Shown: positions 37,724-50,104, counted from the first letter of the stretch. The stretch: 64,000 bases of DNA from Gemmatimonadales bacterium (GCA_038215035.1 JBBQRH010000014.1:2312-66311), one strand, 5' to 3'. Translations and numbers: made by a program. Notes: generated by a model from the sequence alone, not told the origin.

Positions 37724-38824
37724 GTGCTGAAGCTCGGCATCGTCGGTCTCCCGAACGTCGGCAAGTCCACCCTGTTCAACGCGCTCACGGCGGCCAAAGC
37801 CGAGGCGGCGAACTACCCGTTCTGCACCGTCGAGCCAAACGTCGGCATGGTCGAAGTGCCTGACCCCCGCCTCGACGCATTGGCGGCCGTGGTGCAGCCG
37901 AAGCGAACCGTGCCAGCCGTGGTGCAGTTCGTCGACATCGCCGGTCTGGTCAAAGGGGCCGCGCAGGGCGAAGGGCTGGGAAACAAGTTCCTCGCCAACA
38001 TTCGCGAGACCGACGCCATCGTGCACGTCATCCGATGCTTCGACGATGACGACATCACACACGTCATGGGCAGTGTCGATCCGGTGCGCGATCGCGACGT
38101 GATCGACTTTGAACTCTGCTTCGCCGACATCAGCAGCGTCGAGAAGCGGCTCGACAAACAGGCCCGGATTGCCAAGAGCGGCGACAAGGACGCGATCGCT
38201 GAACTCCCTGCGCTGCAGAAGGCACTGGCATCGCTGCAGAACGGAAATCCCGTTCGGCGTGCTGGACTGAGCAAGGAGGAGCTCTTCCTGCTCGAGCCGC
38301 TGATGCTGCTCACGGTCAAGCCAGTCCTCTATGCCGCCAACGTCACTGATGACGAACTGGCCACCGGACACGGCAAGTACGTCGACGCGCTCCGCACGGC
38401 GATTGCGGCCTCGGATGAAGTGGCCGATGTCGTGCCGTTCTCCGCGCGGATCGAGGCCGAACTGGCCGAACTGGCCGCTGACGAGAAGAAGGAATTCCTC
38501 AGTTCACTCGGTCTCGAAAGCGCGGGGCTCGATCGCTTGATTCACGCCGGCTATCACCTGCTCGGGCTGCACACGTACTTCACCGCGGGTGAGCAGGAAG
38601 TGCGCGCGTGGACGATTCATCGTGGCGATACCGCCCCGAAGGCCGCGGCGGTCATCCACACCGATTTCGAGAAGGGCTTCATCCGCGCGGAGACGGCAGG
38701 CTTCGACGACTTCGTGCGACTGAAGGGCTGGAAGGGCGCCAAGGAAGCCGGTGCGGTGCGTTCGGAAGGCAAGGAGTACATCGTGCACGACGGCGATGTG
38801 CTGCTGTTCCGCTTCAACGTCTGA
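37724..38824 (+). CDS. ychF: Ribosome-binding ATPase YchF
   Basis: GTG start. LKLGIVGLPNVGKSTLFNALT...ANYPFCTVEPNVG...FVDIAGLVKGA..GEGLGNKFL...TAGEQEVRAWTI..G.TAPKAAAVIHTDFEKGFIRAE. Confidence 0.95.
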   Translation: MLKLGIVGLPNVGKSTLFNALTAAKAEAANYPFCTVEPNVGMVEVPDPRLDALAAVVQPKRTVPAVVQFVDIAGLVKGAAQGEGLGNKFLANIRETDAIVHVIRCFDDDDITHVMGSVDPVRDRDVIDFELCFADISSVEKRLDKQARIAKSGDKDAIAELPALQKALASLQNGNPVRRAGLSKEELFLLEPLMLLTVKPVLYAANVTDDELATGHGKYVDALRTAIAASDEVADVVPFSARIEAELAELAADEKKEFLSSLGLESAGLDRLIHAGYHLLGLHTYFTAGEQEVRAWTIHRGDTAPKAAAVIHTDFEKGFIRAETAGFDDFVRLKGWKGAKEAGAVRSEGKEYIVHDGDVLLFRFNV

Positions 38825-38863
38825 TCAGTCGTCGCGCACCCACCATTCTGTTGAGGGAACTTC

Positions 38864-39298
38864 ATGACGCTCTTCGCCATGCTGCAGGACGCCGCTGCCG
38901 TTCCGGCGGCGCTGCCGTTCTTCCGCACCCAGCTCTTCTACAAGACGCTGCACATCTTCGGCCTGTTCATGGCCATGACGTCGCTCGGCGGCATCGCGAT
39001 TCACGCCGCGAATGGTGGCACCAAGGCCACCAGCAAGACGCGAGCGCTCACCGCCAGCCTGTTCGGCCTGGGAATGCTGCTGGCGCTGGCCGGCGGGTTC
39101 GGACAGGCCGCGCGGCTCGGCCTCAGCAACACGGCCATCTTTCCCGGATGGCTCTGGTCGAAGGTGGGCATCTGGGTGATCGTCGCGGTGCTCTCCATTC
39201 TGCCCTATCGTATCCCAGCGCTGGCCAAGCCGATCTACGTGCTCGTGCCACTGCTCGGCGGGATTGCAACCTACCTCGCAATCTTCCACAGCTTCTGA
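38864..39298 (+). CDS. Small four-TM integral membrane protein (family uncertain, SirB-like size and topology)
   Basis: Four hydrophobic segments. SD-like gaggga 6 nt upstream of ATG 38864. Good GC3 bias. Confidence 0.6.
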   Translation: MTLFAMLQDAAAVPAALPFFRTQLFYKTLHIFGLFMAMTSLGGIAIHAANGGTKATSKTRALTASLFGLGMLLALAGGFGQAARLGLSNTAIFPGWLWSKVGIWVIVAVLSILPYRIPALAKPIYVLVPLLGGIATYLAIFHSF

Positions 39299-39309
39299 CG
39301 GTCGTGATC

Positions 39310-40566
39310 ATGCTCAGGCAAACCCTGCTCCCACTCTTCTTTGCTGGTGCACTCGGCGCCCAGCCGGTTCGCGTCCCGAACGGTCATCCTGCAATTGCGC
39401 AGGCGCTGGCAACGATTCGGGCCGACAATGCATGGACGCTCGAGCAGCAGGCCTCGATCTGCGAGATCGCCGCCCCGCCGTTCAAGGAGGCCGCGCGTGC
39501 CGCGGAGTTCAAGCGCCGGCTCGAGGCGCTTGGGATCACCAACGTGCACATCGATGCCACCGGGAACGTGATCGGTGAACGCGCCGGCACCGGCATCGGA
39601 CCCACGGTGGTGCTTTCGGCGCATCTCGATACCGTCTTCCCCGAAGGAACGAATGTGAAAGTCCGGCGTGATAGTACGGCCGCCGGCGGCGCACGACTCA
39701 CCGCCCCTGGCATCGGGGATGACTGCCGCGGCCTGGCCGCCGTGCTGGCGGTGGTGCGCGCGATGCGCTCAGCCGATGTGCGCACGACGGGCAAGGTGTA
39801 CGTCGTTGGCACTGTCGGTGAAGAAGGCCCCGGCAACCTGCGCGGCGTGCGCGCGCTGTTCACCGGTGAGCTCAAGGGCAAGATCGACTATTTCATCTCG
39901 GTCGATGGTACCGGCTTTGGCGCGGTCAGCGGAGCGGTCGGCAGCAATCGCTATCGCGTGTCCTACAAAGGGCCGGGCGGCCACAGCTACGGCGCCTTCG
40001 GCATGCCGAACCCGATCCACGCCATGGGACGTGCCATCGCGAAAATGTCGGACTTCACCGTTCCGACGGCGCCGCGCACGACGTTCAGTGCCAGTGTCGT
40101 GAGCGGTGGAACGTCAGTGAATTCAATTCCCTACGAAGGGATCGTCGAAGTCGACATGCGCTCGGAAAGTGCCGCGGCACTCGCCACCCTCGACACGAAG
40201 TTTCAGGTGGCGATTCGCGACGCATTGCGCGAGGAGCTCGCGCGCTGGCCCGACAGCAAGGTCCCGTTGTCGATGGTAATCGATACGATCGGCATCCGTC
40301 CCGCCGGCTCGCAGCCGGACAGCGCCCGGATCGTTCGCGTCGCCGTCGAAGCGGGCAAGGTGCTCGGGTTTCCGGTGACGCCCCATGCATCGAGCACGGA
40401 TTCCAACGTACCGATTGGCCTTGGTATCCCCGCCATTACGCTTGATGCGGGAGGCCGCAGCGCGACCGCGCATTCTCTGACGGAATCATACGATGACGGT
40501 CCGAACGGGTATGTCGGGCCGCAGTACGTTGTGCTGGTGCTCTCCGCGCTGGCGGGCGTCAAGTGA
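39310..40566 (+). CDS. Secreted M20-family metallopeptidase (peptidase T / carboxypeptidase G2-like)
   Basis: Start at ATG 39310 (MLRQTLLPLFFAGALGAQP signal peptide). LSAHLDTVFP, GIGDDCRG, VGTVGEEG, HS..ESY. The listed ORF 38608 is an in-frame upstream extension across ychF. Confidence 0.8.
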   Translation: MLRQTLLPLFFAGALGAQPVRVPNGHPAIAQALATIRADNAWTLEQQASICEIAAPPFKEAARAAEFKRRLEALGITNVHIDATGNVIGERAGTGIGPTVVLSAHLDTVFPEGTNVKVRRDSTAAGGARLTAPGIGDDCRGLAAVLAVVRAMRSADVRTTGKVYVVGTVGEEGPGNLRGVRALFTGELKGKIDYFISVDGTGFGAVSGAVGSNRYRVSYKGPGGHSYGAFGMPNPIHAMGRAIAKMSDFTVPTAPRTTFSASVVSGGTSVNSIPYEGIVEVDMRSESAAALATLDTKFQVAIRDALREELARWPDSKVPLSMVIDTIGIRPAGSQPDSARIVRVAVEAGKVLGFPVTPHASSTDSNVPIGLGIPAITLDAGGRSATAHSLTESYDDGPNGYVGPQYVVLVLSALAGVK

Positions 40567-40579
40567 CGCCCGCCAACAG

Positions 40580-43003
40580 TCAGCGCGTGATGCCCAGGTC
40601 TTCGAATCGCTGGTTCCCGATGCGATACAGGCGCCAGTCCTTGTAGTCGAAGTGCCACCATTCGGCACTGTAGACGCTGAATCCTTCCGCCTCCATCGCG
40701 CGGCGCAGCACCTCGCGTAGCGCGCGCTGACGACTCGTTCCGCCAGGATACTCGGGATACGACCGGTCGGACATCTCGTCATACCCGCCGGTCATCGCGA
40801 CCGGCTCGCCAGTTCGCAGGTCGTACATCGTCAGGTCCACCGCTCCCCCTCGATTGTGTCGAGAGCCCTGGTTCGGGTCGGCGACGAAGTCGTGCTTGTC
40901 GGCTGGCGTTCCGTCCCAGAACATCTTGGTCACGTACCACGGACGGTAACCATCGTGGATCAGTAGTCCGTACCCCTGCGCTGCCAGTTTCCGGTGCGCG
41001 CGAACGAGCGCCTCGGCTGCAGGGCGCTGGAGGAAGGCCCGTGCCTGCGAGTACACCGGCGTACTGAGAAAATTACGGTCGGAGGCATATCGGATATCCA
41101 GCTTGATGGTGGAATCCAGCGTGATCAGCTCTCGGAGCTCGGCATCGCGAAACTGTCCCGACTCCGCTGGCGGCTGCGCTGCCAGCGCCGCTGCGCGGAG
41201 CGTTTCCACTGGCTGCAGGGGCGTGATGCGAAACACGCCGCCGTCCTCGCCGACAATCGCGCGGCGAACGAACGGAACACCGGCGGCGCGTGCCAGCGTC
41301 GCGCGCCCGCTGGCATCCCTGACGAATTCAATGCGCTCGCCGGCGTACAGGCCCGTTGTCGGAAAGGCGTACACGCCGTCACTGATCTCGGTGAGCGGAT
41401 ACTCGAAGAACCATTCGATCAGTGCGTGCAAGCGCCCCTCACGCTCGAGGATGAAGAGGATGTTGTGATCCCATCCATACTCGCCCACCAGTCCGCGGAG
41501 TGCGGGTGACGGATCGACTGGCAACGAGTCGTTGACGGCCGCGACTGGCTCGTACCGTCGACTGCCGTACACCACGGCACTGCCGTCGCGCCAGAGCTTG
41601 TTGCCGTAGGACATCCCGTCATCTGCGATCACCGTATCGCCGGCCCAGTGCCGCATCGTCATTCGATGATCACGGCCATCCACCGAGACGATCACGGTGG
41701 AGTCCTGCACCTCGACCTGCAGCGCCTCGCTTCCATTCCGGTATGTTCCCGCCAGCCGACGTGCCTGCAGCAATGAGACAGGCGATGTGACGGCGATCGC
41801 AGGCAACGCCTCGCGCCTGCGGAGCGCCAGCATCAAGCGCAAGGCCTCGTTCGCGATTCGGGTGGTCAGTCCATTCATCCCGTCCTTGGCCGCGCTGACC
41901 GCCACACCGAGCTGGTCGTCCGGCAGCGCGGCGAGTTGCGTGGCAAATCCGTAGATGGCGCCGCCGTGCGCCACCATCCGACGCCCATCGAGTGTGCCGA
42001 CACCAAAACCGAGACCGGAGCCGCGCGTGGCGCCGGCAGGTGCGAACTGTGGCCGCCACATCTCAGCCAGCGAGCTCGCACGCAGCACCGGGCCATTGAC
42101 GCCCTGACCGCGGTCGAAGAGCATGCTGATGAAGCGCCCGAGGTCCGGCATTGTGCTGTACATGCTGCCGGCAGGCGCCATGCCGAGTGGAAACGTCGGT
42201 GCGGGAAACTGGCGGCCATGATACGACCACATCACCGCCTCCGGCACGCGCGCGAGCATCGCCGGCGATGGATCGAACGAACTGGATGTCATCCCGGCCG
42301 GCTGCAACACCGCGCGCTGCAAAAAGACGGCGAAGGGCATTCGGCTCTTCTGCTCGAGCACGTAGCCGACCGTGGCGATGGCGGCGTTCGAGTATTTCTG
42401 CGTGGTTCCCGGGGCATACACCAGCGCTGTCTGACTGAGACTGGCGACCGTCCTGGCGAGCGACGGCCGGGTGTCGTCGAAGTAGTGCCCGACCGGCGGC
42501 TCGCGAACCAGACCGGAATAGTGCGACATCAGCTGCCGCAGCGTCACCGGCGTGCCGAAGGTGTTCCGCGGCGTGAAGGATGGCAGGTACTGTTGCACCG
42601 GTGCGTCGAGGTTCAACTGTCCCCGCTCGACCAGCTGCATGATGCCGATGTCGGTGAACATCTTGGAGACTGATCCAACACGGTACACGGTGTTCGCCGT
42701 TGCCGACTTCCCGGTCGCGGCGTTCTCCACCCCGAAGCCGCGCGACCACACCACGCGGTTGCTGTCGACCAGCGCAATTGACAGGGCGGGAATCCCCTTG
42801 TCGCGCAGCTCGTGCTCGATGAATGCGGTCAGTGCCTGGGTCACCGGCCCGTATCGCGGCAGCGGCCCGATCACATCCCGAGCCTGCGCGCCGAGAACGG
42901 GGGCCACGATGCACGCAGACATGGCAAGTGTCATCACGCTGCGAAAACGTACCAAAGCTGTAGCGCCGCACACAGCGCCCACCCGCGTTCCGGCCGTTAC
43001 CAT
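40580..43003 (-). CDS. Fusion protein: beta-lactamase-fold serine DD-peptidase-like domain plus C-terminal VanX/DdpX-type D-Ala-D-Ala dipeptidase (M15D)
   Basis: N-terminal half: SxxK (YRVGSVSKMFT), YxN (QKYSNAA), HGG (VAHGGAIYG). C-terminal about 200 aa: LLIHDGYRPWYVTKMFW, GSRHNRGGAVDLTMYD, FSVYSAEWWHFDY. The ATG at 43003 overlaps the GntR stop by 7 nt. Confidence 0.8.
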   Translation of the reverse strand: MVTAGTRVGAVCGATALVRFRSVMTLAMSACIVAPVLGAQARDVIGPLPRYGPVTQALTAFIEHELRDKGIPALSIALVDSNRVVWSRGFGVENAATGKSATANTVYRVGSVSKMFTDIGIMQLVERGQLNLDAPVQQYLPSFTPRNTFGTPVTLRQLMSHYSGLVREPPVGHYFDDTRPSLARTVASLSQTALVYAPGTTQKYSNAAIATVGYVLEQKSRMPFAVFLQRAVLQPAGMTSSSFDPSPAMLARVPEAVMWSYHGRQFPAPTFPLGMAPAGSMYSTMPDLGRFISMLFDRGQGVNGPVLRASSLAEMWRPQFAPAGATRGSGLGFGVGTLDGRRMVAHGGAIYGFATQLAALPDDQLGVAVSAAKDGMNGLTTRIANEALRLMLALRRREALPAIAVTSPVSLLQARRLAGTYRNGSEALQVEVQDSTVIVSVDGRDHRMTMRHWAGDTVIADDGMSYGNKLWRDGSAVVYGSRRYEPVAAVNDSLPVDPSPALRGLVGEYGWDHNILFILEREGRLHALIEWFFEYPLTEISDGVYAFPTTGLYAGERIEFVRDASGRATLARAAGVPFVRRAIVGEDGGVFRITPLQPVETLRAAALAAQPPAESGQFRDAELRELITLDSTIKLDIRYASDRNFLSTPVYSQARAFLQRPAAEALVRAHRKLAAQGYGLLIHDGYRPWYVTKMFWDGTPADKHDFVADPNQGSRHNRGGAVDLTMYDLRTGEPVAMTGGYDEMSDRSYPEYPGGTSRQRALREVLRRAMEAEGFSVYSAEWWHFDYKDWRLYRIGNQRFEDLGITR

Positions 43004-43713
43004 TGTCCACGCTCGCCGACGTTGGTGATCACCTGACCCAGCCGCACCGCCGCATTTCGCCAGTTGGTTTGCACCGCCCGCTGTGCGGCATCGGGATCGG
43101 CACTGCGGATCGCACGAATGATCGCCGCATGTTCCTGTACCGAGGGCGCAAGCCCCCGCGACAACAGGCTCACGTACAAGCGCTCGTAGCGTTCGGCCTG
43201 CGGCTTCACCGCGTCGTGCAGCGCGCGCAATCGGGGCCCGGCCGCGAGTTCCACATACCGGCGGTGAAACCGCTCGTCGAGCTCGTAGAGCAGATCGTGT
43301 TTCGGCACCTTTGCGCGCGAGGCCCGCTCGAATCGAGCGTTGATGGTCGTCAATTCGCCGAGCAGCGCGTCACGCTTCCCGGCGGGAAGCGCCGTCGCGC
43401 ATCTCGCAGCCAGGCCTTCGATCTCGGCCACGATCGAAAACAGCTCCATCGCATCTTCGCGTGTCAGCGGCGCGACCGTCGGTCGCGATTGTTGCAGTGA
43501 CGGGGAGTCGATGATGTACCCCTCGTGCGCAAGTCGCTGCAGGGCGCCCCGCACCGGAGTGCGGCTGACTCGCAGCTTGCTGGCGACGTCGGTCTCCACG
43601 ATACGCGATCCCGGCGCCAGCTGCCCGCGCACGATCAACGCGCGCAAGGCGTGGTACACGACCATCGGTCGAGCGCCCCGGACGCTCGTCACCGCAGGCG
43701 CAGTACTCTTCAT
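42997..43713 (-). CDS. GntR-family transcriptional regulator (FadR/FCD-type C-terminal domain)
   Basis: VYHALRALIVRGQLAPGSRIVETDVASKLRVSRTPVRGALQRLAHEGYI, followed by an all-helical C-terminal domain. Start ATG 43713 forms an ATGA overlap with the upstream stop. Confidence 0.85.
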   Translation of the reverse strand: MKSTAPAVTSVRGARPMVVYHALRALIVRGQLAPGSRIVETDVASKLRVSRTPVRGALQRLAHEGYIIDSPSLQQSRPTVAPLTREDAMELFSIVAEIEGLAARCATALPAGKRDALLGELTTINARFERASRAKVPKHDLLYELDERFHRRYVELAAGPRLRALHDAVKPQAERYERLYVSLLSRGLAPSVQEHAAIIRAIRSADPDAAQRAVQTNWRNAAVRLGQVITNVGERGQW

Positions 43714-45506
43714 GGTGCCACCCGGTGACCAGTCCATCCTGGCCCGCGCACGATCCGACCGGGCTTCGCCCCCGTGTGTTTTCCCTGATCCCAGACACGC
43801 ACTCCGTTGACGATCACGGTCTCGATACCCACGGAATTTTGATGTGGCGCCGTAAATGTCGCCTTGTCGATCACCGTCGTGGGATCAAAGATCACCACGT
43901 CCGCGAAGAAACCTTCGCGCAACTGGCCACGATCACGGATGGACAGGCGATTTGCCACCGCCGACGTCATCTTCCGCACTGCCTCCTCGAGCGTCAGGAT
44001 ACCGCGCTCGCGCACATAGTGCCCGAGGATCCTGGTATAGGTGCCATAGGCGCGGGGATGTGTGAGGCCTTTCGCCGAGTCGGGGTCCGAGCCGTCGGCA
44101 TCGGTCCCGAACTTCATCCAGGACTGGCGCATCTGCATCTCGACATTCGGCTCCGACATCATGAAGACCAGCATCCCGACGCGGCCCTCGGTCGCGAGGA
44201 GCAGCTCCACAATGGTGTTTGCCCAGCTCTTGCCCATACCGGCGGCGATCTCGGTAATCCGCTTGCCTTCGTATTGCTTGAGGGCTGGTTGCTCGAAGCC
44301 AACCGTCATGATGCCGGCAGGTGTCGCCAACGCGCAGAGATTTTCCCAGCTGCTGCTCGGGGCCTGCATCTCCGCGATGATCCTGGCGCGTGTCGCGGTG
44401 TCGCGCAGCCGTTCGAGCAGCTTGTCGCCTTCGGTGGCCCACGGTGGTGTGCAGGCAGACAGCGACGTTCCCCCCGCGACGTACGGATACATGTCGGCCG
44501 CCACATCCTGCCCCGCCGCCCGCGCCGAGTCGATCTTCGCCACGGCCTGCGTCGCCTTGGGCCAGTTGCGGACGCCACCCGCCTTGAGGTGATAGATCTC
44601 CACCGGCACCCCACCCTCGCGCCCGATGCGCATCGCCTCGTCGATCGCCTCCAGATACTGATCGGCCTCTGATCGCATGTGCGTGATGTACACACCGCCA
44701 AGCGGCGACATCGCCTTGGCAATCTCCACCAGCTCCGGTGTCGCGGCGAAGTTTCCCGGCGGATAGATCAACGCGCTGGCAACACCAAACGCGCCGTCCT
44801 GCATCGCGTTGCGTGTCACCGCGCGCATGGTGTCAAGTTCCGCGGGCGTTGGTGCACCTTGGCCAAAGCCCTTGGCATACACGCGAATCGTGCCGGCGCC
44901 GAGGAAGGAGCCGACGTTGACCGACGTGCCATGCTGCTGCATCGCCGTCAACCACGTCGCGAAGCCACGCGGTCCGGTAAAAGCGCTGAACGCCTTTGCC
45001 TGCACCGAATCATCGTGCGTGCGCACCTGCGAGGCCAGCAGCGCCGCAATGGCGGCGTTCACCGGTGCTGGCGTACTGCCTTCGCCGAGGATTTCCGTCG
45101 TCACCCCCTGCGACACCTTGCCCACCACGCGCCCGTCGCCGGTAGTGAACTGCAGCGCCGATTGCCCCTGGATGTCGATGAAGCCAGGCGCCACGACGCG
45201 TCCAGCGGCATCGATGCGTGTGGTGGCGGCCGCCGTGCCGAGGAGCCCGGCAGGGACGATCGCTGCGATCCGGTCGCCCCGGATGCCGACGTCGGCGGCA
45301 TACCAGGCGTTGCCGGTGCCGTCGATGACGCGGCCATTGGCGATCACAATGTCGTATGCGCCGACGGCAGCGGGGGGCGAGGACGCGCCAGCGGCCGGCT
45401 CAGCCGCGCGGCAGGCGCCGAGCACCCACAGAGCCGGTGCGATGAGGAGCAGGCGCGGCCACCGGCCGGCGGTCGACGGCTTGCGTTCTGCAGAATCGAT
45501 GGGCAT
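43710..45506 (-). CDS. N-acyl-D-amino-acid deacylase (D-aminoacylase) family amidohydrolase, lipoprotein
   Basis: Lipobox LWVLGAC after ATG 45506. YDIVIANGRVIDGTGN...GIRGDRIAAI...GRVVAPGFIDIQGQS...SQGVTTEILGEG...VYITHMRSE...VEIYHLKAGG aligns by eye with D-aminoacylases, but the HxH/Cys metal-ligand positions differ. Confidence 0.8.
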   Translation of the reverse strand: MPIDSAERKPSTAGRWPRLLLIAPALWVLGACRAAEPAAGASSPPAAVGAYDIVIANGRVIDGTGNAWYAADVGIRGDRIAAIVPAGLLGTAAATTRIDAAGRVVAPGFIDIQGQSALQFTTGDGRVVGKVSQGVTTEILGEGSTPAPVNAAIAALLASQVRTHDDSVQAKAFSAFTGPRGFATWLTAMQQHGTSVNVGSFLGAGTIRVYAKGFGQGAPTPAELDTMRAVTRNAMQDGAFGVASALIYPPGNFAATPELVEIAKAMSPLGGVYITHMRSEADQYLEAIDEAMRIGREGGVPVEIYHLKAGGVRNWPKATQAVAKIDSARAAGQDVAADMYPYVAGGTSLSACTPPWATEGDKLLERLRDTATRARIIAEMQAPSSSWENLCALATPAGIMTVGFEQPALKQYEGKRITEIAAGMGKSWANTIVELLLATEGRVGMLVFMMSEPNVEMQMRQSWMKFGTDADGSDPDSAKGLTHPRAYGTYTRILGHYVRERGILTLEEAVRKMTSAVANRLSIRDRGQLREGFFADVVIFDPTTVIDKATFTAPHQNSVGIETVIVNGVRVWDQGKHTGAKPGRIVRGPGWTGHRVAP

Positions 45507-45519
45507 GCTTGACCCGAGA

Positions 45520-45535
45520 GAATTGTATACAGTTC
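45520..45535. promoter_or_regulatory. AT-rich palindrome in the divergent promoter region (candidate GntR/FadR-type operator)
   Basis: gaatTGTATACAgttc with perfect core TGTATACA (45524-45531). It matches the GT-n-AC FadR-subfamily half-site logic and stands out in GC-rich DNA. It lies between ATG 45506 (-) and ATG 45602 (+). Confidence 0.4.
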
Positions 45536-45601
45536 TGTGCACATCTATCGCTATCATCCGGTGGTCCACACCGCAAGCCCGCACTCCGCCCTGTCGTCTC
45601 C

Positions 45602-46423
45602 ATGACCACGCACGTCCCGCCGATCACGATTCGCGAGTTGTCCTCGCTGGCCGACTACGACGCTTGCGTCGCACTGCAGGATGACACCTGGGGGCACGGA
45701 TTCTCGGAGCGGGTCCCCGGCGCGATTCTGCGCGTATCGCAAAAGATCGGCGGGGTGGCAGCAGGCGCCTTTGATTCCAATGACCGGATGCTGGGCTTCG
45801 TTTTCGGGATGACAGGCCTCCAGCACGGGCGCCCTGTCCACTGGTCGGACATGCTCGCCGTCCGCCCTGAAGCCCGCGGCCTTGGAATCGGCGAGGCACT
45901 CAAGGCACACCAGCGTCACGTTGTGGTACCTCTCGGCGTGCACCGGATGTTGTGGACCGCCGATCCGCTGGTGGCCCGCAACGCGCACTTCAACATCAAC
46001 CATCTCGGTGCGTTCCCGGCCGAGTACGTCGAGAACATGTACGGCGAGAACACCGGCAGCATTTTGCACGGTGCCATGCCGACCGATCGCTTCGTATACC
46101 ACTGGGACCTCACGGCGACGGGCGTGTCGCCCGTGCGCAGCGGTGCACCCGACGCCGCAGACGGTGCGCTGCCACAGGCGATCGCCCTGCAGACAGACGG
46201 GACGCCGGTCGCAGTTCCGACCGTCGATGCCACTGCAGTCCGTATCACGATCCCGCAGGACCTGTCCGCCGTGCAGGCCGTCGACCTCGACCTGGCACGC
46301 GCCTGGCGCATTGCGGTCCGGGCCGCCTTCACAGCCCGCTTCACGCAGGGCCTCGTCGTGACGCGCTTCGTCCGCGGACTCGACGACCGTCTGCCATACT
46401 ACGTCCTGTCCGCGACGCGCTGA
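45602..46423 (+). CDS. GNAT-like acyltransferase (candidate D-amino acid N-succinyl/acetyl-transferase)
   Basis: ITIRELSSLADYDACVALQDDTWG...HWSDMLAVRPEARGLGIGEALKAHQR (acyl-CoA-binding R/Q-x-x-G-x-G/A-like segment). Immediately precedes the racemase gene. ATG at 45602. Confidence 0.65.
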   Translation: MTTHVPPITIRELSSLADYDACVALQDDTWGHGFSERVPGAILRVSQKIGGVAAGAFDSNDRMLGFVFGMTGLQHGRPVHWSDMLAVRPEARGLGIGEALKAHQRHVVVPLGVHRMLWTADPLVARNAHFNINHLGAFPAEYVENMYGENTGSILHGAMPTDRFVYHWDLTATGVSPVRSGAPDAADGALPQAIALQTDGTPVAVPTVDATAVRITIPQDLSAVQAVDLDLARAWRIAVRAAFTARFTQGLVVTRFVRGLDDRLPYYVLSATR

Positions 46424-46455
46424 CATCAGCCATACGCACTTCAACTCGACTCATC

Positions 46456-47577
46456 ATGCTCGAACTCACCAGCATCACGCTTCGCGAAATCCGGCTCCCG
46501 CTGCGCGAACCCTTCCGCATCTCGTCCGGAACGATGACCGAGCGGCGGATCGCGCTGATCGAGTTGCACGACGCGAGTGGCGCCAGCGCGTGGAGTGAGT
46601 GCGTCGCTGATGACACGCCGAACTATACGGCAGAGACGGTCGACACCGCCTGGCTCGCCATCGAGCGATGGATCGCACCACGCGTGCTCGGCCGCACCTT
46701 CAGCGCCGCGGGCGATGTATTCGCAGTCCTCGAAGAGGACTTTCGCGGTCACCTGATGGCGAAAGCAGCCGTCGAGATGGGAATGTGGGGCGTGGAAGCA
46801 ACATCCCTTGGCGTCCCACTGGCGCGGCTCATCGGCGGCACGCGACAGACCATTCCGGTTGGCATTTCGATCGGTATCCAAAGCTCACCCGAGGCGCTGG
46901 TGGAAAAGGTGCGTGGCGCACTGGCCGAGGGATATCGGAAGATCAAGCTCAAGATCATGCCTGGCCGGGATGTCGCATACGTTCGGGCAGTGCGCGAGGC
47001 ATTTCCGGATGCACCGCTGATGGCGGATGCGAACAATGCGTATACGCTCGATGACGCCGACGCACTGATTGCGATGGACAGCCTCAACCTGATGATGTTC
47101 GAGCAGCCGCTTGCGTGGGAGGACATCGTCCGTCACGCCTCGCTGCAGCGCATGTTGAAGACGCCGATCTGTCTCGACGAGTCGATTACATCGTTGGACC
47201 GGGCGCAGGACATGATCACACTCGGGGCCGGCCGCCTGATCAACATCAAGCCCGGTCGCGTGGGCGGCTTTGCGGAATCACTCGCGATCCACGACTACTG
47301 CGAAGTAAATGGCGTACCCGTGTGGTGCGGCGGTATGCTCGAGAGCGGAATCGGCCGCGCCTACAACGTGGCACTCGCATCGCTGAGCAACTTCCAGAAG
47401 CCGGGAGACCTCAGTCCGAGCGCACGATACTGGTCGCAGGATGTCGTGACTCCCGAGTGGACCATGAGCAGCGACGGCATGGTCACGGTGCCGTTCAACA
47501 CACCGGGAATCGGCGTCACGGTGAACGTCGACCGGATTGACGACCTTACGGTACGTACCCTGTCGCTGTCGCGATAG
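46456..47577 (+). CDS. Enolase-superfamily N-succinylamino acid racemase / o-succinylbenzoate synthase
   Basis: LREIRLPLREPFRISSGT, KxK (YRKIKLKI), metal ligands MADAN / MFEQP / CLDES, second Lys NIKPGRVGG. ATG at 46456; the listed ORF is an upstream extension. Confidence 0.85.
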   Translation: MLELTSITLREIRLPLREPFRISSGTMTERRIALIELHDASGASAWSECVADDTPNYTAETVDTAWLAIERWIAPRVLGRTFSAAGDVFAVLEEDFRGHLMAKAAVEMGMWGVEATSLGVPLARLIGGTRQTIPVGISIGIQSSPEALVEKVRGALAEGYRKIKLKIMPGRDVAYVRAVREAFPDAPLMADANNAYTLDDADALIAMDSLNLMMFEQPLAWEDIVRHASLQRMLKTPICLDESITSLDRAQDMITLGAGRLINIKPGRVGGFAESLAIHDYCEVNGVPVWCGGMLESGIGRAYNVALASLSNFQKPGDLSPSARYWSQDVVTPEWTMSSDGMVTVPFNTPGIGVTVNVDRIDDLTVRTLSLSR

Positions 47578-47580
47578 TCG

Positions 47581-48831
47581 ATGTACCCGCTCCCGACCCC
47601 ACCGGGCTCGCTGCCCCATCGAACCACGCTGCAGGTCGGTCGTGGCGCCGCCGACCGGTTCTCGGACGCGCAGGTCAGCGAATTACTCACGCTCCGTCGC
47701 ACGCTGCATCACTTTCCCGAACTGTCGAATCAGGAGCACCGAACTGCCGCGCATCTCGAGGCTGTTCTCGAGTCACTTGGTATCGCCGGGATTCAACGTG
47801 TCGCGGGAACCGGAATCGTGGCGCGAATTCGCGGACTGTACGCTGACGCGCCGGTGGTGGCGATCCGCGGCGACATCGACGCGCTGCCCATCGAGGAACA
47901 GACCGGATTGGCGTTCAGCTCATCGACTCCCGGCGTGATGCACGCGTGTGGCCATGACGTACACGCTACCTGGGCAATTGGCGCTGCAATGGATCTCCTC
48001 CACTCGCCGGCCGAAGGCGACGTCCTGATCGTGCTGCAACCCGCCGAAGAAATTGGCGCAGGCGCGACGGCGATTCTGGCCAGTGGAGTGCTCGATGGTG
48101 TACAGGCAATTTTTGGCGGACACGTCGACCGCCGATTCACCGTCGGGGAGGTGATCGCCGAGCCAGGCCCACTGGCTGCGTCGGCCGACAGCTTCACGAT
48201 TCAGCTGCGCGGGAAGGGGGCGCACGGTGCACGACCCCACGAGGCCGCCGATCCGATCGTCGCCGCGGCGGCCGTGATCATGGCGCTGCAAACCGTGGTT
48301 GCGCGTCGCGTTGATCCTGCGCGCCCCGCCGTGTGCACGGTCGGCAGCGTCAACGCCGGTATTGCATCGAACGTGATTCCGGAAGCGGCAACGCTCACCG
48401 GAACACTGCGGGCCATGGATGCGCCGACGCGCGCGACGCTCGTCACTGAAGTCATCCGAATCGCCACGGATGTCGCGGCCGCATATGGCGTGGTTGCCAC
48501 CGTTGACGTCGAACACGGAACGCCACCCATCGTGAACCCTGTGCGTGAAGCGCAGTGGGCACGCGCCGCAGCCGTTGCGGTCCTGGGGACCGGCGCCGTC
48601 GTGCCGTTCGGGATCACGAACATGGGTGGGGAGGATTTCGCATTCTACCTCGAGCGCATTCCCGGTTGCTTCCTGCGTTTCGGCGCCCGGGCCGCAGGCG
48701 AGGTGGCTACGGCCGCCCATTCGCCGCGGTTCGACGTGGCCGAGGGGGCGATTCTGGTGGGCGCTGCCGTGCTTGCGGAGTGCGCCAGGACCGCCAGCCG
48801 CGAGCTGCGCGCGCTCGCCGCCGTGGCCTGA
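47581..48831 (+). CDS. M20D-family amidohydrolase (N-acyl-L-amino acid amidohydrolase / desuccinylase-like)
   Basis: LRRTLHHFPELSNQEHRTAAHL, IRGDIDALPIEE, MHACGHDVH, QPAEE, GGEDFAFY. Confidence 0.85.
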   Translation: MYPLPTPPGSLPHRTTLQVGRGAADRFSDAQVSELLTLRRTLHHFPELSNQEHRTAAHLEAVLESLGIAGIQRVAGTGIVARIRGLYADAPVVAIRGDIDALPIEEQTGLAFSSSTPGVMHACGHDVHATWAIGAAMDLLHSPAEGDVLIVLQPAEEIGAGATAILASGVLDGVQAIFGGHVDRRFTVGEVIAEPGPLAASADSFTIQLRGKGAHGARPHEAADPIVAAAAVIMALQTVVARRVDPARPAVCTVGSVNAGIASNVIPEAATLTGTLRAMDAPTRATLVTEVIRIATDVAAAYGVVATVDVEHGTPPIVNPVREAQWARAAAVAVLGTGAVVPFGITNMGGEDFAFYLERIPGCFLRFGARAAGEVATAAHSPRFDVAEGAILVGAAVLAECARTASRELRALAAVA

Positions 48832-48904
48832 CGAACGATCGGCTCAAGCTTTACCGCAGACGTACCGATCCTTTGAGGAAACTCATGTTCATCGGACCGG
48901 GCCA

Positions 48905-50104
48905 ATGTTCTTCAAGAAAAAGGAGCCGGACGCTCGCGCGGCATCTCCGCGCCAGCCTGCCACCGGCGTAGCAGCTGTCAGTGACGCACCTGCGCGTGTC
49001 GCAGCTGGTGCTGGTCACGCAGAGAAGGAACACCAGAGCACCATCGTGTTGGATGCCCTGGGCGGTGTGATCGCCGCGATTGCGCGCTTCCCCGTTGATC
49101 TGCCGCATCGCCCCGCGGAAGCCACGACGAAGGAGATGACGTCGTGGCAGCGGCATGCGACAATGGGCCTCCCGCTGGATAGCGGCGAGGAAGGGTCGTC
49201 GGTTGGCATTACGGAGCGCGATTGGCGTGGCCTGGTGCGGGCGGTGGCGGCGCTCCGTCGCGATGAACAGAGCTCGGTCGAATCGCTGGTGAACGAACTG
49301 CGCTCGGCGCTGTGGACCTGCGTCTCGGCGGTGCACGAAGCGGTCCGGATCGACGATTCCGCCGAGGCAACGACCGGCTCGCATCTGGCACTGGTGAAGA
49401 AAGCGATCGGTGGTTCGCAACTGCAGAACATCCGGGAAGACGTCCTGAATGCCGTCAGCGAGATCGATCGCACGCTGAAAGAGCGTCGCGAGGAGCAGCA
49501 GCGTCAGTACAAGACCCTTGCGACGTCCCTCGACTCGCTTGGACGTCAGCTCGAAGAAGCGCGAAAGGAGAGCGCAACCGACCCCCTCACCGGCGTCGGG
49601 AACCGAAAGCACTTCGATCTGATGGCTGGGCGCGCGGTCCAGCTGTTCTCGCTGGGACGTGCGCCAGTGACGATGTTGATGATCGATCTGAACAAGCTCA
49701 AGGTGATCAACGACTCATACGGCCACACCGCGGGCGATGCGGCCATTGTCAGCGTGGCGCACGCCCTGTGGAAGGTCTTTCTGCGACAGAGCGACGTCAT
49801 CACCCGATATGGCGGCGATGAGTTCGCGGTCATCCTCAACAACTGTGATCTGCTGGTGGCGCAGACATTGGCCAAGCGGCTGGTGGAGACGGTACGCAGC
49901 CTTCCACTGCCGAGCGCCTCCATGGAGTTCGCCATGGGCGCGTCAGTTGGCATCGCCCAGCTCGCACCGGGTGAGGATGTGACGCAGTGGGTGGCCAGGG
50001 CCGACCGGGCCATGTATCAGGCAAAGAAACAAGCGACCAGCGGCGTCATGATCGCCGATCCGGCTGGAAGCGTCGTGCCGCCCCCGCAGCGGCGCACGGC
50101 CTGA
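48905..50104 (+). CDS. Diguanylate cyclase (GGDEF) with an RxxD I-site
   Basis: DPLTGVGNRKHFD, RQSDVITRYGGDEFAVIL (RxxD five residues before GGDEF), DRAMYQAKK. Start at ATG 48905 (MFFKKKEPD). Confidence 0.85.
   Translation: MFFKKKEPDARAASPRQPATGVAAVSDAPARVAAGAGHAEKEHQSTIVLDALGGVIAAIARFPVDLPHRPAEATTKEMTSWQRHATMGLPLDSGEEGSSVGITERDWRGLVRAVAALRRDEQSSVESLVNELRSALWTCVSAVHEAVRIDDSAEATTGSHLALVKKAIGGSQLQNIREDVLNAVSEIDRTLKERREEQQRQYKTLATSLDSLGRQLEEARKESATDPLTGVGNRKHFDLMAGRAVQLFSLGRAPVTMLMIDLNKLKVINDSYGHTAGDAAIVSVAHALWKVFLRQSDVITRYGGDEFAVILNNCDLLVAQTLAKRLVETVRSLPLPSASMEFAMGASVGIAQLAPGEDVTQWVARADRAMYQAKKQATSGVMIADPAGSVVPPPQRRTA

Follow-up and report, generated by a model that had tools for sequence, protein, structure and literature searches.

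A divergent locus with a GntR-type regulator in a Gemmatimonadota genome and its candidate role in D-amino-acid use

Six genes in a 64,000-nucleotide stretch of DNA from a Gemmatimonadales bacterium (GCA_038215035.1, JBBQRH010000014.1:2312-66311; the whole stretch is called the window below) are arranged in two divergent arms (40580-48831) and probably form a GntR-controlled locus for D-amino-acid use, a reading to which we assign a probability of about 60%. The minus arm consists of a D-aminoacylase-like lipoprotein, a GntR/FCD regulator and a fusion protein in which an S12 peptidase domain is joined to a VanX-type domain (S12::VanX). The plus arm consists of a GNAT acyltransferase, a racemase of the NSAR/OSBS subfamily (NSAR, N-succinylamino acid racemase) and an M20D amidohydrolase, all co-directional. 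The link between the arms is supported at the level of sequence by a conserved shared palindrome and by the recurrence of the same families close to one another in changing arrangements. The two hydrolases of the minus arm carry export signals and the trio of the plus arm carries none. Outside the cytoplasm, the hydrolases would release D-amino acids, which the trio would then convert to L-amino acids in the cytoplasm.

The window originates from a metagenome-assembled Gemmatimonadota genome of 4.72 Mb in 185 contigs, which is 90.6% complete, and among sequencing runs it is listed for DNA of sediment metagenomes only, with no RNA run. The gene map of the first-pass annotation, which had been made from the sequence alone, is confirmed by inspection of the sequence and by profile searches. 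The six genes, their junctions and their gaps lie at the places given there, and each of the motifs listed there (KIKLKI, MADAN, FEQP, LDES, NIKPGRVGG and MHACGHD) is present in the translations. Profile searches, comparison with solved structures and, for GNAT, a modelled fold assign families to all six proteins. In the minus arm, the stop codon of the amidohydrolase gene and an alternative GntR start at 43713 are joined by ATGA (43713-43710), and the GntR stop and the start of the fusion gene overlap by the 7 nt ATGGTAA (43003-42997). An alternative start of the fusion gene lies at 42934. The gaps of the plus arm are 32 nt (46424-46455) and 3 nt (47578-47580).

Evidence for linkage of the two arms

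The 95-bp divergent region between the arms (45507-45601) contains the near-perfect palindrome GAATTGTATACAGTTC, separated by 14 nt from the start of the amidohydrolase gene and by 67 nt from that of the GNAT gene. The palindrome fits the t.GT...AC.a type and lies near the gene of the candidate regulator, and we regard it as a candidate GntR operator. The regulator combines a GntR winged helix (PF00392, 3e-13) with an FCD domain (PF07729, 2.5e-16), which assigns it to the FadR subfamily, and at E<1e-10 the genome contains no second gene of this kind. The palindrome core TGTATACA (45524-45531) occurs three times in the 4.72-Mb genome. When the genome is searched with the 14-mer consensus, the site at 45520-45535 ranks first and is the sole good match, and the remaining two core sites, on C18 and C70, have no related genes nearby. 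The regulon appears to be this locus only. A scan for promoters detected no sigma-70-like element in the divergent region or elsewhere in the locus, and a terminator scan returned one terminator-like site, no more than expected by chance; both scans are uninformative for this phylum.

For comparison, we assembled 118 unique loci centred on the GNAT gene and not selected by their neighbours, 40 of them from a sample of 301 genomes of the phylum and 78 from a species-level collection that reaches other phyla. The neighbourhoods of these relatives were mapped with tblastn and a conservation-based choice of genes. Across 1.96 Mb of related loci the core TGTATACA is found 29 times, which is ~23x its density in the genome. 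None of these 29 sites lies inside a gene, and 26 are positioned just 5' of GNAT, NSAR, GntR, D-aminoacylase-like, beta-lactamase-fold or TonB-receptor genes. In both L033 and L034, the core precedes NSAR as well as GntR and also occurs between two beta-lactamase-fold genes. Loci with a GntR gene carry the core in 12 of 26 cases, compared to 8 of 92 for loci without GntR, and several other GntR loci carry the close variant TTGTATACC.

The gene families of the two arms also recur together. A GntR gene of this type is located within 8 kb of GNAT in 26 of the 118 loci (chance ~0.4%), a D-aminoacylase-like gene in 24 (~2%), a beta-lactamase-fold gene in 22 (~7%), a TonB receptor in 21 (~5%) and an APC amino-acid permease in 16 (~4%), where the chance rates are rough values from copy numbers in this one genome. 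GntR, D-aminoacylase-like and VanX genes are found near GNAT 9 to 60 times more often than expected from copy number, a range that overstates independence, as the compared genomes are kin. A VanX orthologue is present in ~95 of the 301 phylum genomes, with an open frame of at least 700 aa in ~55 of those, and the fusion is thus a widespread and conserved family in Gemmatimonadota. Of the 60 genomes that have both a VanX orthologue and GNAT, 7 place the two no more than 6 kb apart, and these represent at least 6 genera, from 3 families. These tallies over the 301 genomes include four unpublished genomes (G097, G157, G182 and G057), which change no other count, change these by at most 4 and contribute none of the individual loci described here. 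The arrangements differ from locus to locus: L053 contains all six genes in a different order, in L054 the fusion shares its strand with GNAT and NSAR, L085 carries a permease in addition, and L057 and L058 are long islands with a TonB/SusD pair. We argue for a functional tie between the arms because the families recur in shuffled order and orientation. The pairing of the two arms in the first-pass annotation therefore finds support in the relatives, from the conserved palindrome as well as from the recurrent co-location.

It could still be that the two arms have nothing to do with each other and that their adjacency carries no functional meaning. The plus arm would then be a stand-alone D-to-L (or N-acyl-amino-acid) pathway, and the minus arm would serve envelope maintenance, trimming the cell's own peptidoglycan with a DD-peptidase and a D-Ala-D-Ala dipeptidase under their own GntR. 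Such an explanation fits the low frequency of the full arrangement, which weighs against a common function of the arms: the complete six-gene set is rare and a minority arrangement, exported hydrolase families are missing from the 8-kb surroundings of GNAT in 86 of the 118 loci, and most VanX-fusion genes in the phylum sit away from GNAT. With ~20 beta-lactamase-fold paralogues, some adjacency has to be expected by chance. In addition, D-Ala is manageable by alanine racemase (Alr). The alr gene is present in the genome, so D-Ala freed by the VanX domain would need no NSAR route, and the proposal of the first-pass annotation that cell-wall D-Ala is the source is not supported as such. What unrelated neighbours do not explain is that one palindrome precedes both kinds of genes in many relatives, L033 and L034 among them, that the families recur together in varied order and orientation in several genera and families, and that GntR, D-aminoacylase-like and VanX genes exceed the prediction from copy number near GNAT. 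We consider the explanation by unrelated neighbours unlikely.

Genes for uptake are found in a subset of the relatives. Where a TonB receptor lies near GNAT, it is often accompanied by a SusD-like gene, as assigned by Pfam. In L017, L019, L020, L023, L074 and L125, GNAT is divergent from a SusD-like gene and from the gene of a TonB-dependent receptor that contains a CarboxypepD_reg domain, and TGTATACA lies in between; some of the TonB/SusD loci continue with a beta-lactamase-fold gene and a gene for a PLP-dependent (pyridoxal phosphate-dependent; PALP) enzyme. A permease of the APC amino-acid family is located between NSAR and GNAT in L033 (10345-11727), L034 and L079. This permease is the clearest candidate for an importer of the pathway. 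One of the relative genomes, G067, belongs to the same family, is complete in a single contig of 4,636,964 bp and carries the related locus L024, in which GntR, the candidate operator and GNAT-NSAR are accompanied by a permease, a beta-lactamase-fold gene and a D-aminoacylase-like gene.

Table 1. Position, strand and assignment basis of the features of the locus (window coordinates)
Feature	Position	Strand	Basis
S12::VanX fusion, 807 aa	40580-43003	-	PF00144 + PF01427
GntR/FCD regulator	42997-43737	-	PF00392 + PF07729
D-aminoacylase-like lipoprotein	43710-45506	-	PDB 1rjp/1m7j match 1e-84
Palindrome GAATTGTATACAGTTC, 16 bp, candidate GntR operator	45520-45535		sequence + conservation in relatives
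GNAT-fold acyltransferase, 273 aa	45602-46423	+	AlphaFold model, fold search, synteny
NSAR/OSBS racemase	46456-47577	+	TIGR01928, 332 bits
M20D amidohydrolase	47581-48831	+	TIGR01891, 337 bits

The racemase and its partners in the plus arm

The racemase contains the domains MR_MLE_N (PF02746) and MR_MLE_C (PF13378) and passes the TIGR01928 profile. Among solved structures it comes closest to the N-acylamino acid racemases of Deinococcus, Thermus and Amycolatopsis, which match over the full length with 309-329 bits (Deinococcus 329). The KxK motif, the metal carboxylates D/E/D and the second catalytic Lys align with the Deinococcus enzyme 2ggg, within the motifs KIKLKI, MADAN, FEQP, LDES and NIKPGRVGG. 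The second-shell Arg of RVGG (R266 in Amycolatopsis numbering), which marks the NSAR/OSBS subfamily (bioRxiv 10.1101/2022.03.03.481873), is also present and aligned. From these features, we assign the protein as an N-succinylamino acid racemase of the NSAR/OSBS subfamily of the enolase superfamily (MLE subgroup), for which racemisation is predicted. The identity with DgcA was considered and rejected, as the protein reaches 109 bits against a cut-off of 400 (NCBIfam NF042940).

The first-pass annotation had named a menaquinone OSBS encoded beside men genes as the assignment that would speak against its proposal. The neighbours of the racemase gene are GNAT and M20D, and neither MenB nor MenD exceeded the cut-off in a profile search of the 90.6%-complete genome. 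The genome does contain futalosine-route genes, of the MqnA/D type and MqnC. OSBS activity should be dispensable for this host, because MenB and MenD were not found and the futalosine genes are present. The gene content thus indicates that the racemase is not a menaquinone OSBS.

The assignment of the acyltransferase comes from its fold. In Pfam, the protein scores borderline for GNAT with 20.6 bits against a cut-off of 20.7, NCBIfam has no family for it, and a search of PDB sequences gave nothing useful. The AlphaFold model has a pLDDT of 93, and Foldseek relates it with probability 1.0 to many amino-acid acetyltransferases of the GNAT family, with target TM-scores of 0.74-0.83. The N-terminal ~170 aa resemble the N-acetyltransferases PA4866 and YncA and the phosphinothricin acetyltransferases (PAT). 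They are followed by a C-terminal extension of ~100 aa that is conserved across the family, which comprises 3966 clusters at 50% identity. We propose the protein as a candidate acyl-CoA (succinyl-CoA):D-amino acid N-acyltransferase, based on the modelled fold and on its place beside NSAR. Many members of this family are named 'chorismate synthase' by JGI (Joint Genome Institute). Fold and gene context give no support for this label, which looks like a propagated mis-annotation.

The third enzyme of the plus arm combines the catalytic and the dimerisation domain of M20 (PF01546 and PF07687) with the metal motif MHACGHD. B. subtilis YxeP (1ysj, 1e-74) is its best solved relative, and in the context of the trio the protein is a candidate N-succinyl-L-amino acid desuccinylase. 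The first-pass annotation had likened the trio to the known D-to-L pathway, and this likeness stands at the level of families. A GNAT succinyltransferase, an NSAR/OSBS enzyme and an M20 L-desuccinylase make up that pathway (bioRxiv 10.1101/2022.03.03.481873, citing Sakai 2006; PMC12006748). The survey of neighbourhoods shows how widespread the combination is. NSAR lies within 2.5 kb of GNAT in 105 of the 118 loci, and an M20D gene follows NSAR within 8 kb of GNAT in 53. The GNAT-NSAR pair is found across phyla, in Acidobacteriota, Bacteroidota, Ignavibacteriales, Calditrichaceae, Nitrospirales, Hydrogenedentes and others.

A different substrate for the plus arm has to be weighed at this point. 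The arm could act on another N-acylated compound, for the salvage of N-succinyl-, N-acetyl- or modified amino acids from the environment, with GNAT in detoxification as in the yxe pathway of B. subtilis. YxeP is the deacetylase of exactly this pathway, the nearest GNAT folds include acetyltransferases that detoxify methionine sulfoximine and phosphinothricin, and the GNAT substrates are predicted ones. The tight and wide GNAT-NSAR pairing argues in the other direction, as it requires racemisation and plain detoxification does not. The recurrent neighbours moreover belong to D-stereospecific hydrolase families. Action of the arm on such other compounds is, in our view, improbable.

The M20D gene is followed by a gene for a GGDEF diguanylate cyclase (48545-50104, plus strand), of which the N-terminal half of ~340 aa has no assigned family. 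In the same family, ~6 relatives carry GGDEF homologues next to their GNAT-NSAR loci, which may reflect either inherited gene order or a functional connection.

The exported hydrolases of the minus arm

The first-pass annotation had described the lipoprotein of the minus arm as a member of the D-aminoacylase family. This holds for family and export and has to be qualified for the active site. The best solved relatives are the Alcaligenes D-aminoacylases, which match over the full length, and a lipobox is present (VLGAC), with its Cys in every orthologue seen. The HxH motif of the alpha metal site is replaced, with IQGQ where SHTH is expected, and the Cys ligand of the tight metal site (Cys96) is changed to Glu in GEG. 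Kept are His276 and His306 (THMR, YHLK), the Asp of TDA and the YPY hinge motif. In an alignment of 17 relatives, Gln at the first position and the Glu are invariant, the Asp and the two remaining His are conserved as well, and the relatives read Q-x-Q or Q-x-H/G in place of HxH. Judged by these residues, the protein is D-aminoacylase-like and belongs to a subfamily with altered metal site, and it is not a canonical D-aminoacylase. The conservation of the variant residues suggests that the protein is a functional enzyme whose metal site is of another kind.

Further D-aminoacylase-like genes are found in the relatives. A second paralogue group, 40% identical and recognized by IDMMDQSG and GGEGG, is often found in the same loci (L013-L063). 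The D-aminoacylase-like gene directly follows GNAT in L049, L050, L134 and L135, with GntR divergent. The genome of the window itself (G000) contains ~20 paralogues of the beta-lactamase fold (PF00144-type) and 6 D-aminoacylase-like genes in 4.7 Mb and thus has a large set of hydrolases, both serine and metallo, of D-stereospecific families.

The fusion protein starts with a signal peptide, followed by the S12 domain, a middle part of ~210 aa without Pfam family and the VanX-type M15 domain. Pfam places Beta-lactamase (PF00144, 3e-66) at residues 60-377 and Peptidase_M15/VanX (PF01427, 2e-32) at residues 626-790. The S12 motifs are present in the translation as SVSK (SxxK), YSN (YxN) and HGG (H/KxG), and the nearest solved relatives of this domain are the D-stereospecific S12 peptidases Pab87, R61 DD-peptidase and alkaline D-peptidase. 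In the VanX domain, the Zn ligands His/Asp/His, the catalytic Glu and the substrate Arg all align with 1r44 (GYRP, SRHNRGGAVD, EWWH). Its scores stay below the equivalog cut-offs, with 132 against 176 bits for DdpX and 97 against 320 bits for VanX. By sequence, we classify the C-terminal domain as VanX-like and not as VanX or DdpX proper. The N-terminal signal is kept on the fusion and its orthologues. Domains, motifs and conserved signal bear out the earlier description of a secreted fusion of a serine DD-peptidase-like part with a VanX-type part.

A gene for an M20/M28-type peptidase (38608-40566, plus strand) is convergent with the fusion gene and ends 14 nt from its end. A long open reading frame (ORF) of this peptidase overlaps ychF, and there is a separate ORF of 144 aa at 38864-39298. 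The peptidase gene is kept in the same-genus relative only.

Export signals are conserved on both hydrolases, as lipobox or signal peptide, and the trio has no such leaders. The compartments fit the pathway, because the hydrolases carry leaders and the trio does not. That the locus would instead make D-amino acids, with GNAT acylating L-amino acids, NSAR racemising the products and the D-aminoacylase-like enzyme releasing the D-form, is very improbable even though an industrial cascade of D-acylase and NSAR works (PMC12149444) and a D-acylase-family gene stands beside GNAT-NSAR here and directly after GNAT in the four loci listed above: the lipoprotein signal on the D-aminoacylase-like protein and all its orthologues indicates an extracytoplasmic location apart from GNAT and NSAR, M20D belongs to a family of L-specific N-acyl-amino-acid hydrolases and is close-coupled to NSAR by the 3-nt gap, and succinyl-CoA would be spent without net gain if both hydrolases shared one pool.

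Proposed function and comparison with known systems

For a locus of D-amino-acid use, we propose the following sequence of events. Outside the cytoplasm, the exported S12::VanX fusion and the D-aminoacylase-family lipoprotein would attack compounds that contain D-amino acids. Likely substrates are D-peptides, dipeptides of the D-Ala-D-Ala type and N-acyl- or L-Xaa-D-amino acids, and free D-amino acids would be the products. These would be taken up by the cell, possibly by proteins such as the APC permease or the TonB receptor with SusD-like protein that relatives carry at the locus. In the cytoplasm, GNAT would N-acylate the D-amino acid, most likely with succinyl-CoA, and NSAR would racemise the N-succinyl-amino acid. 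M20D would then hydrolyse the L-form only and in this way pull the flow to L-amino acids. The GntR/FCD protein may bind the TGTATACA palindrome between the arms and control both of them.

Several observations concerning substrates and steps count against this proposal, in addition to those named above for the linkage. The D-aminoacylase-like protein is without three canonical metal ligands, the His pair of HxH and the Cys, so that its substrate and even its activity are uncertain. Some relatives have GNAT beside a D-aminoacylase-like gene with NSAR more than 100 kb away, at a distance of 141 kb from the pair in G194 and 224 kb in G080, and the simple pathway model does not predict such a pairing with remote NSAR. 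This locus contains no importer, and the nearest permease orthologue is found on another contig. Released D-Ala would not depend on the NSAR route, and NSARs favour larger hydrophobic side chains.

A broader view is tentative, and we put it forward as a possibility that may well not hold in full. In Gemmatimonadota, a dedicated and regulated 'D-peptide utilisation locus' would have the NSAR pathway as its final, cytoplasmic part. In such a locus, exported S12::VanX proteins and D-aminoacylase-like lipoproteins with variant metal site would strip D-residues from bacterial necromass or peptide antibiotics, TonB/SusD proteins would act as importers in relatives, and the FadR-type GntR would be the protein that senses an intermediate as its effector and acts via one TGTATACA operator.

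The three-enzyme pathway itself is already known. NSARs are textbook enzymes for promiscuity and serve as industrial catalysts, and the natural source of D-amino acids for the D-to-L pathway had stayed unclear. Here and in the relatives, gene order and a shared motif connect the pathway to exported hydrolases of D-stereospecific families, to importers and to a local regulator. If the proposal is true, it would provide a natural substrate supply for these much-studied enzymes and would show one way in which D-amino acids are recycled by bacteria of soils and sediments. It represents a concrete hypothesis on the use of D-amino acids, which are part of the slow-turnover organic nitrogen, and it brings up two types of enzymes, the S12::VanX fusion and the D-aminoacylase relatives with Gln/Glu site. 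A literature search that combined NSAR with D-aminoacylase, with D-Ala-D-Ala dipeptidase or with Gemmatimonadetes returned no description of a linkage to exported D-type hydrolases, importers or a GntR operator. Within the literature searched, the remark of the first-pass annotation that the combined arrangement had not been described holds.

The single components can be compared to characterized enzymes. VanX and DdpX are cytoplasmic. The C-terminal domain of the fusion shares with them (1r44; NF007557, NF033115) the residues that bind Zn, along with the catalytic Glu and the Arg for the substrate. In contrast to VanX and DdpX, it is placed behind an S12 domain and a signal peptide, is predicted to be extracytoplasmic and scores below the cut-offs. 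The lipoprotein shares with the Alcaligenes D-aminoacylase the full-length match, the His pair of the tight site, the catalytic Asp and the YPY hinge. It differs by Q-x-Q for HxH, by Glu for Cys, by its lipoprotein leader and by an extra insert of ~60 aa. With regard to the racemase, the host resembles Amycolatopsis, as it is likewise without need for OSBS.

At the level of the locus, there is a likeness to loci of the polysaccharide-utilisation type (SusC/SusD). In relatives, a TonB receptor with SusD-like protein, exported hydrolases, a regulator and a cytoplasmic finishing pathway lie behind the same candidate operator. The predicted substrates are peptides with D-residues or acyl-amino acids and not glycans, and the locus studied here differs from these loci by having no SusC/SusD pair. 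The DgcN-DgcA route for D-glutamate, which consists of an N-acetyltransferase and an N-acetyl-D-Glu racemase (PMC12363236), follows a similar logic, in which a D-amino acid is N-acylated, racemised by an enzyme of the enolase superfamily and deacylated. The racemase here is an NSAR/OSBS member, and the GNAT family differs.

The closest comparison is the D-to-L set of the Geobacillus type. The same three superfamilies are found in one close, co-directional unit, and the racemase belongs to the same NSAR/OSBS subfamily with all catalytic residues. The GNAT protein, with its C-terminal extension, is likened to the Geobacillus enzyme by family and context and is a putative counterpart of it; a look-alike cluster from Bacillota in the Atlas is a lead in this direction. 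The operon contexts published for Geobacillus, Lysinibacillus and Roseiflexus make, in the accessible parts of these accounts, no mention of hydrolases that supply D-amino acids. In contrast to the Geobacillus-type set, the unit described here belongs to a diderm phylum, Gemmatimonadota, and is divergent to the genes of a GntR regulator and of a pair of exported D-type hydrolases, which share a palindromic candidate operator with it.

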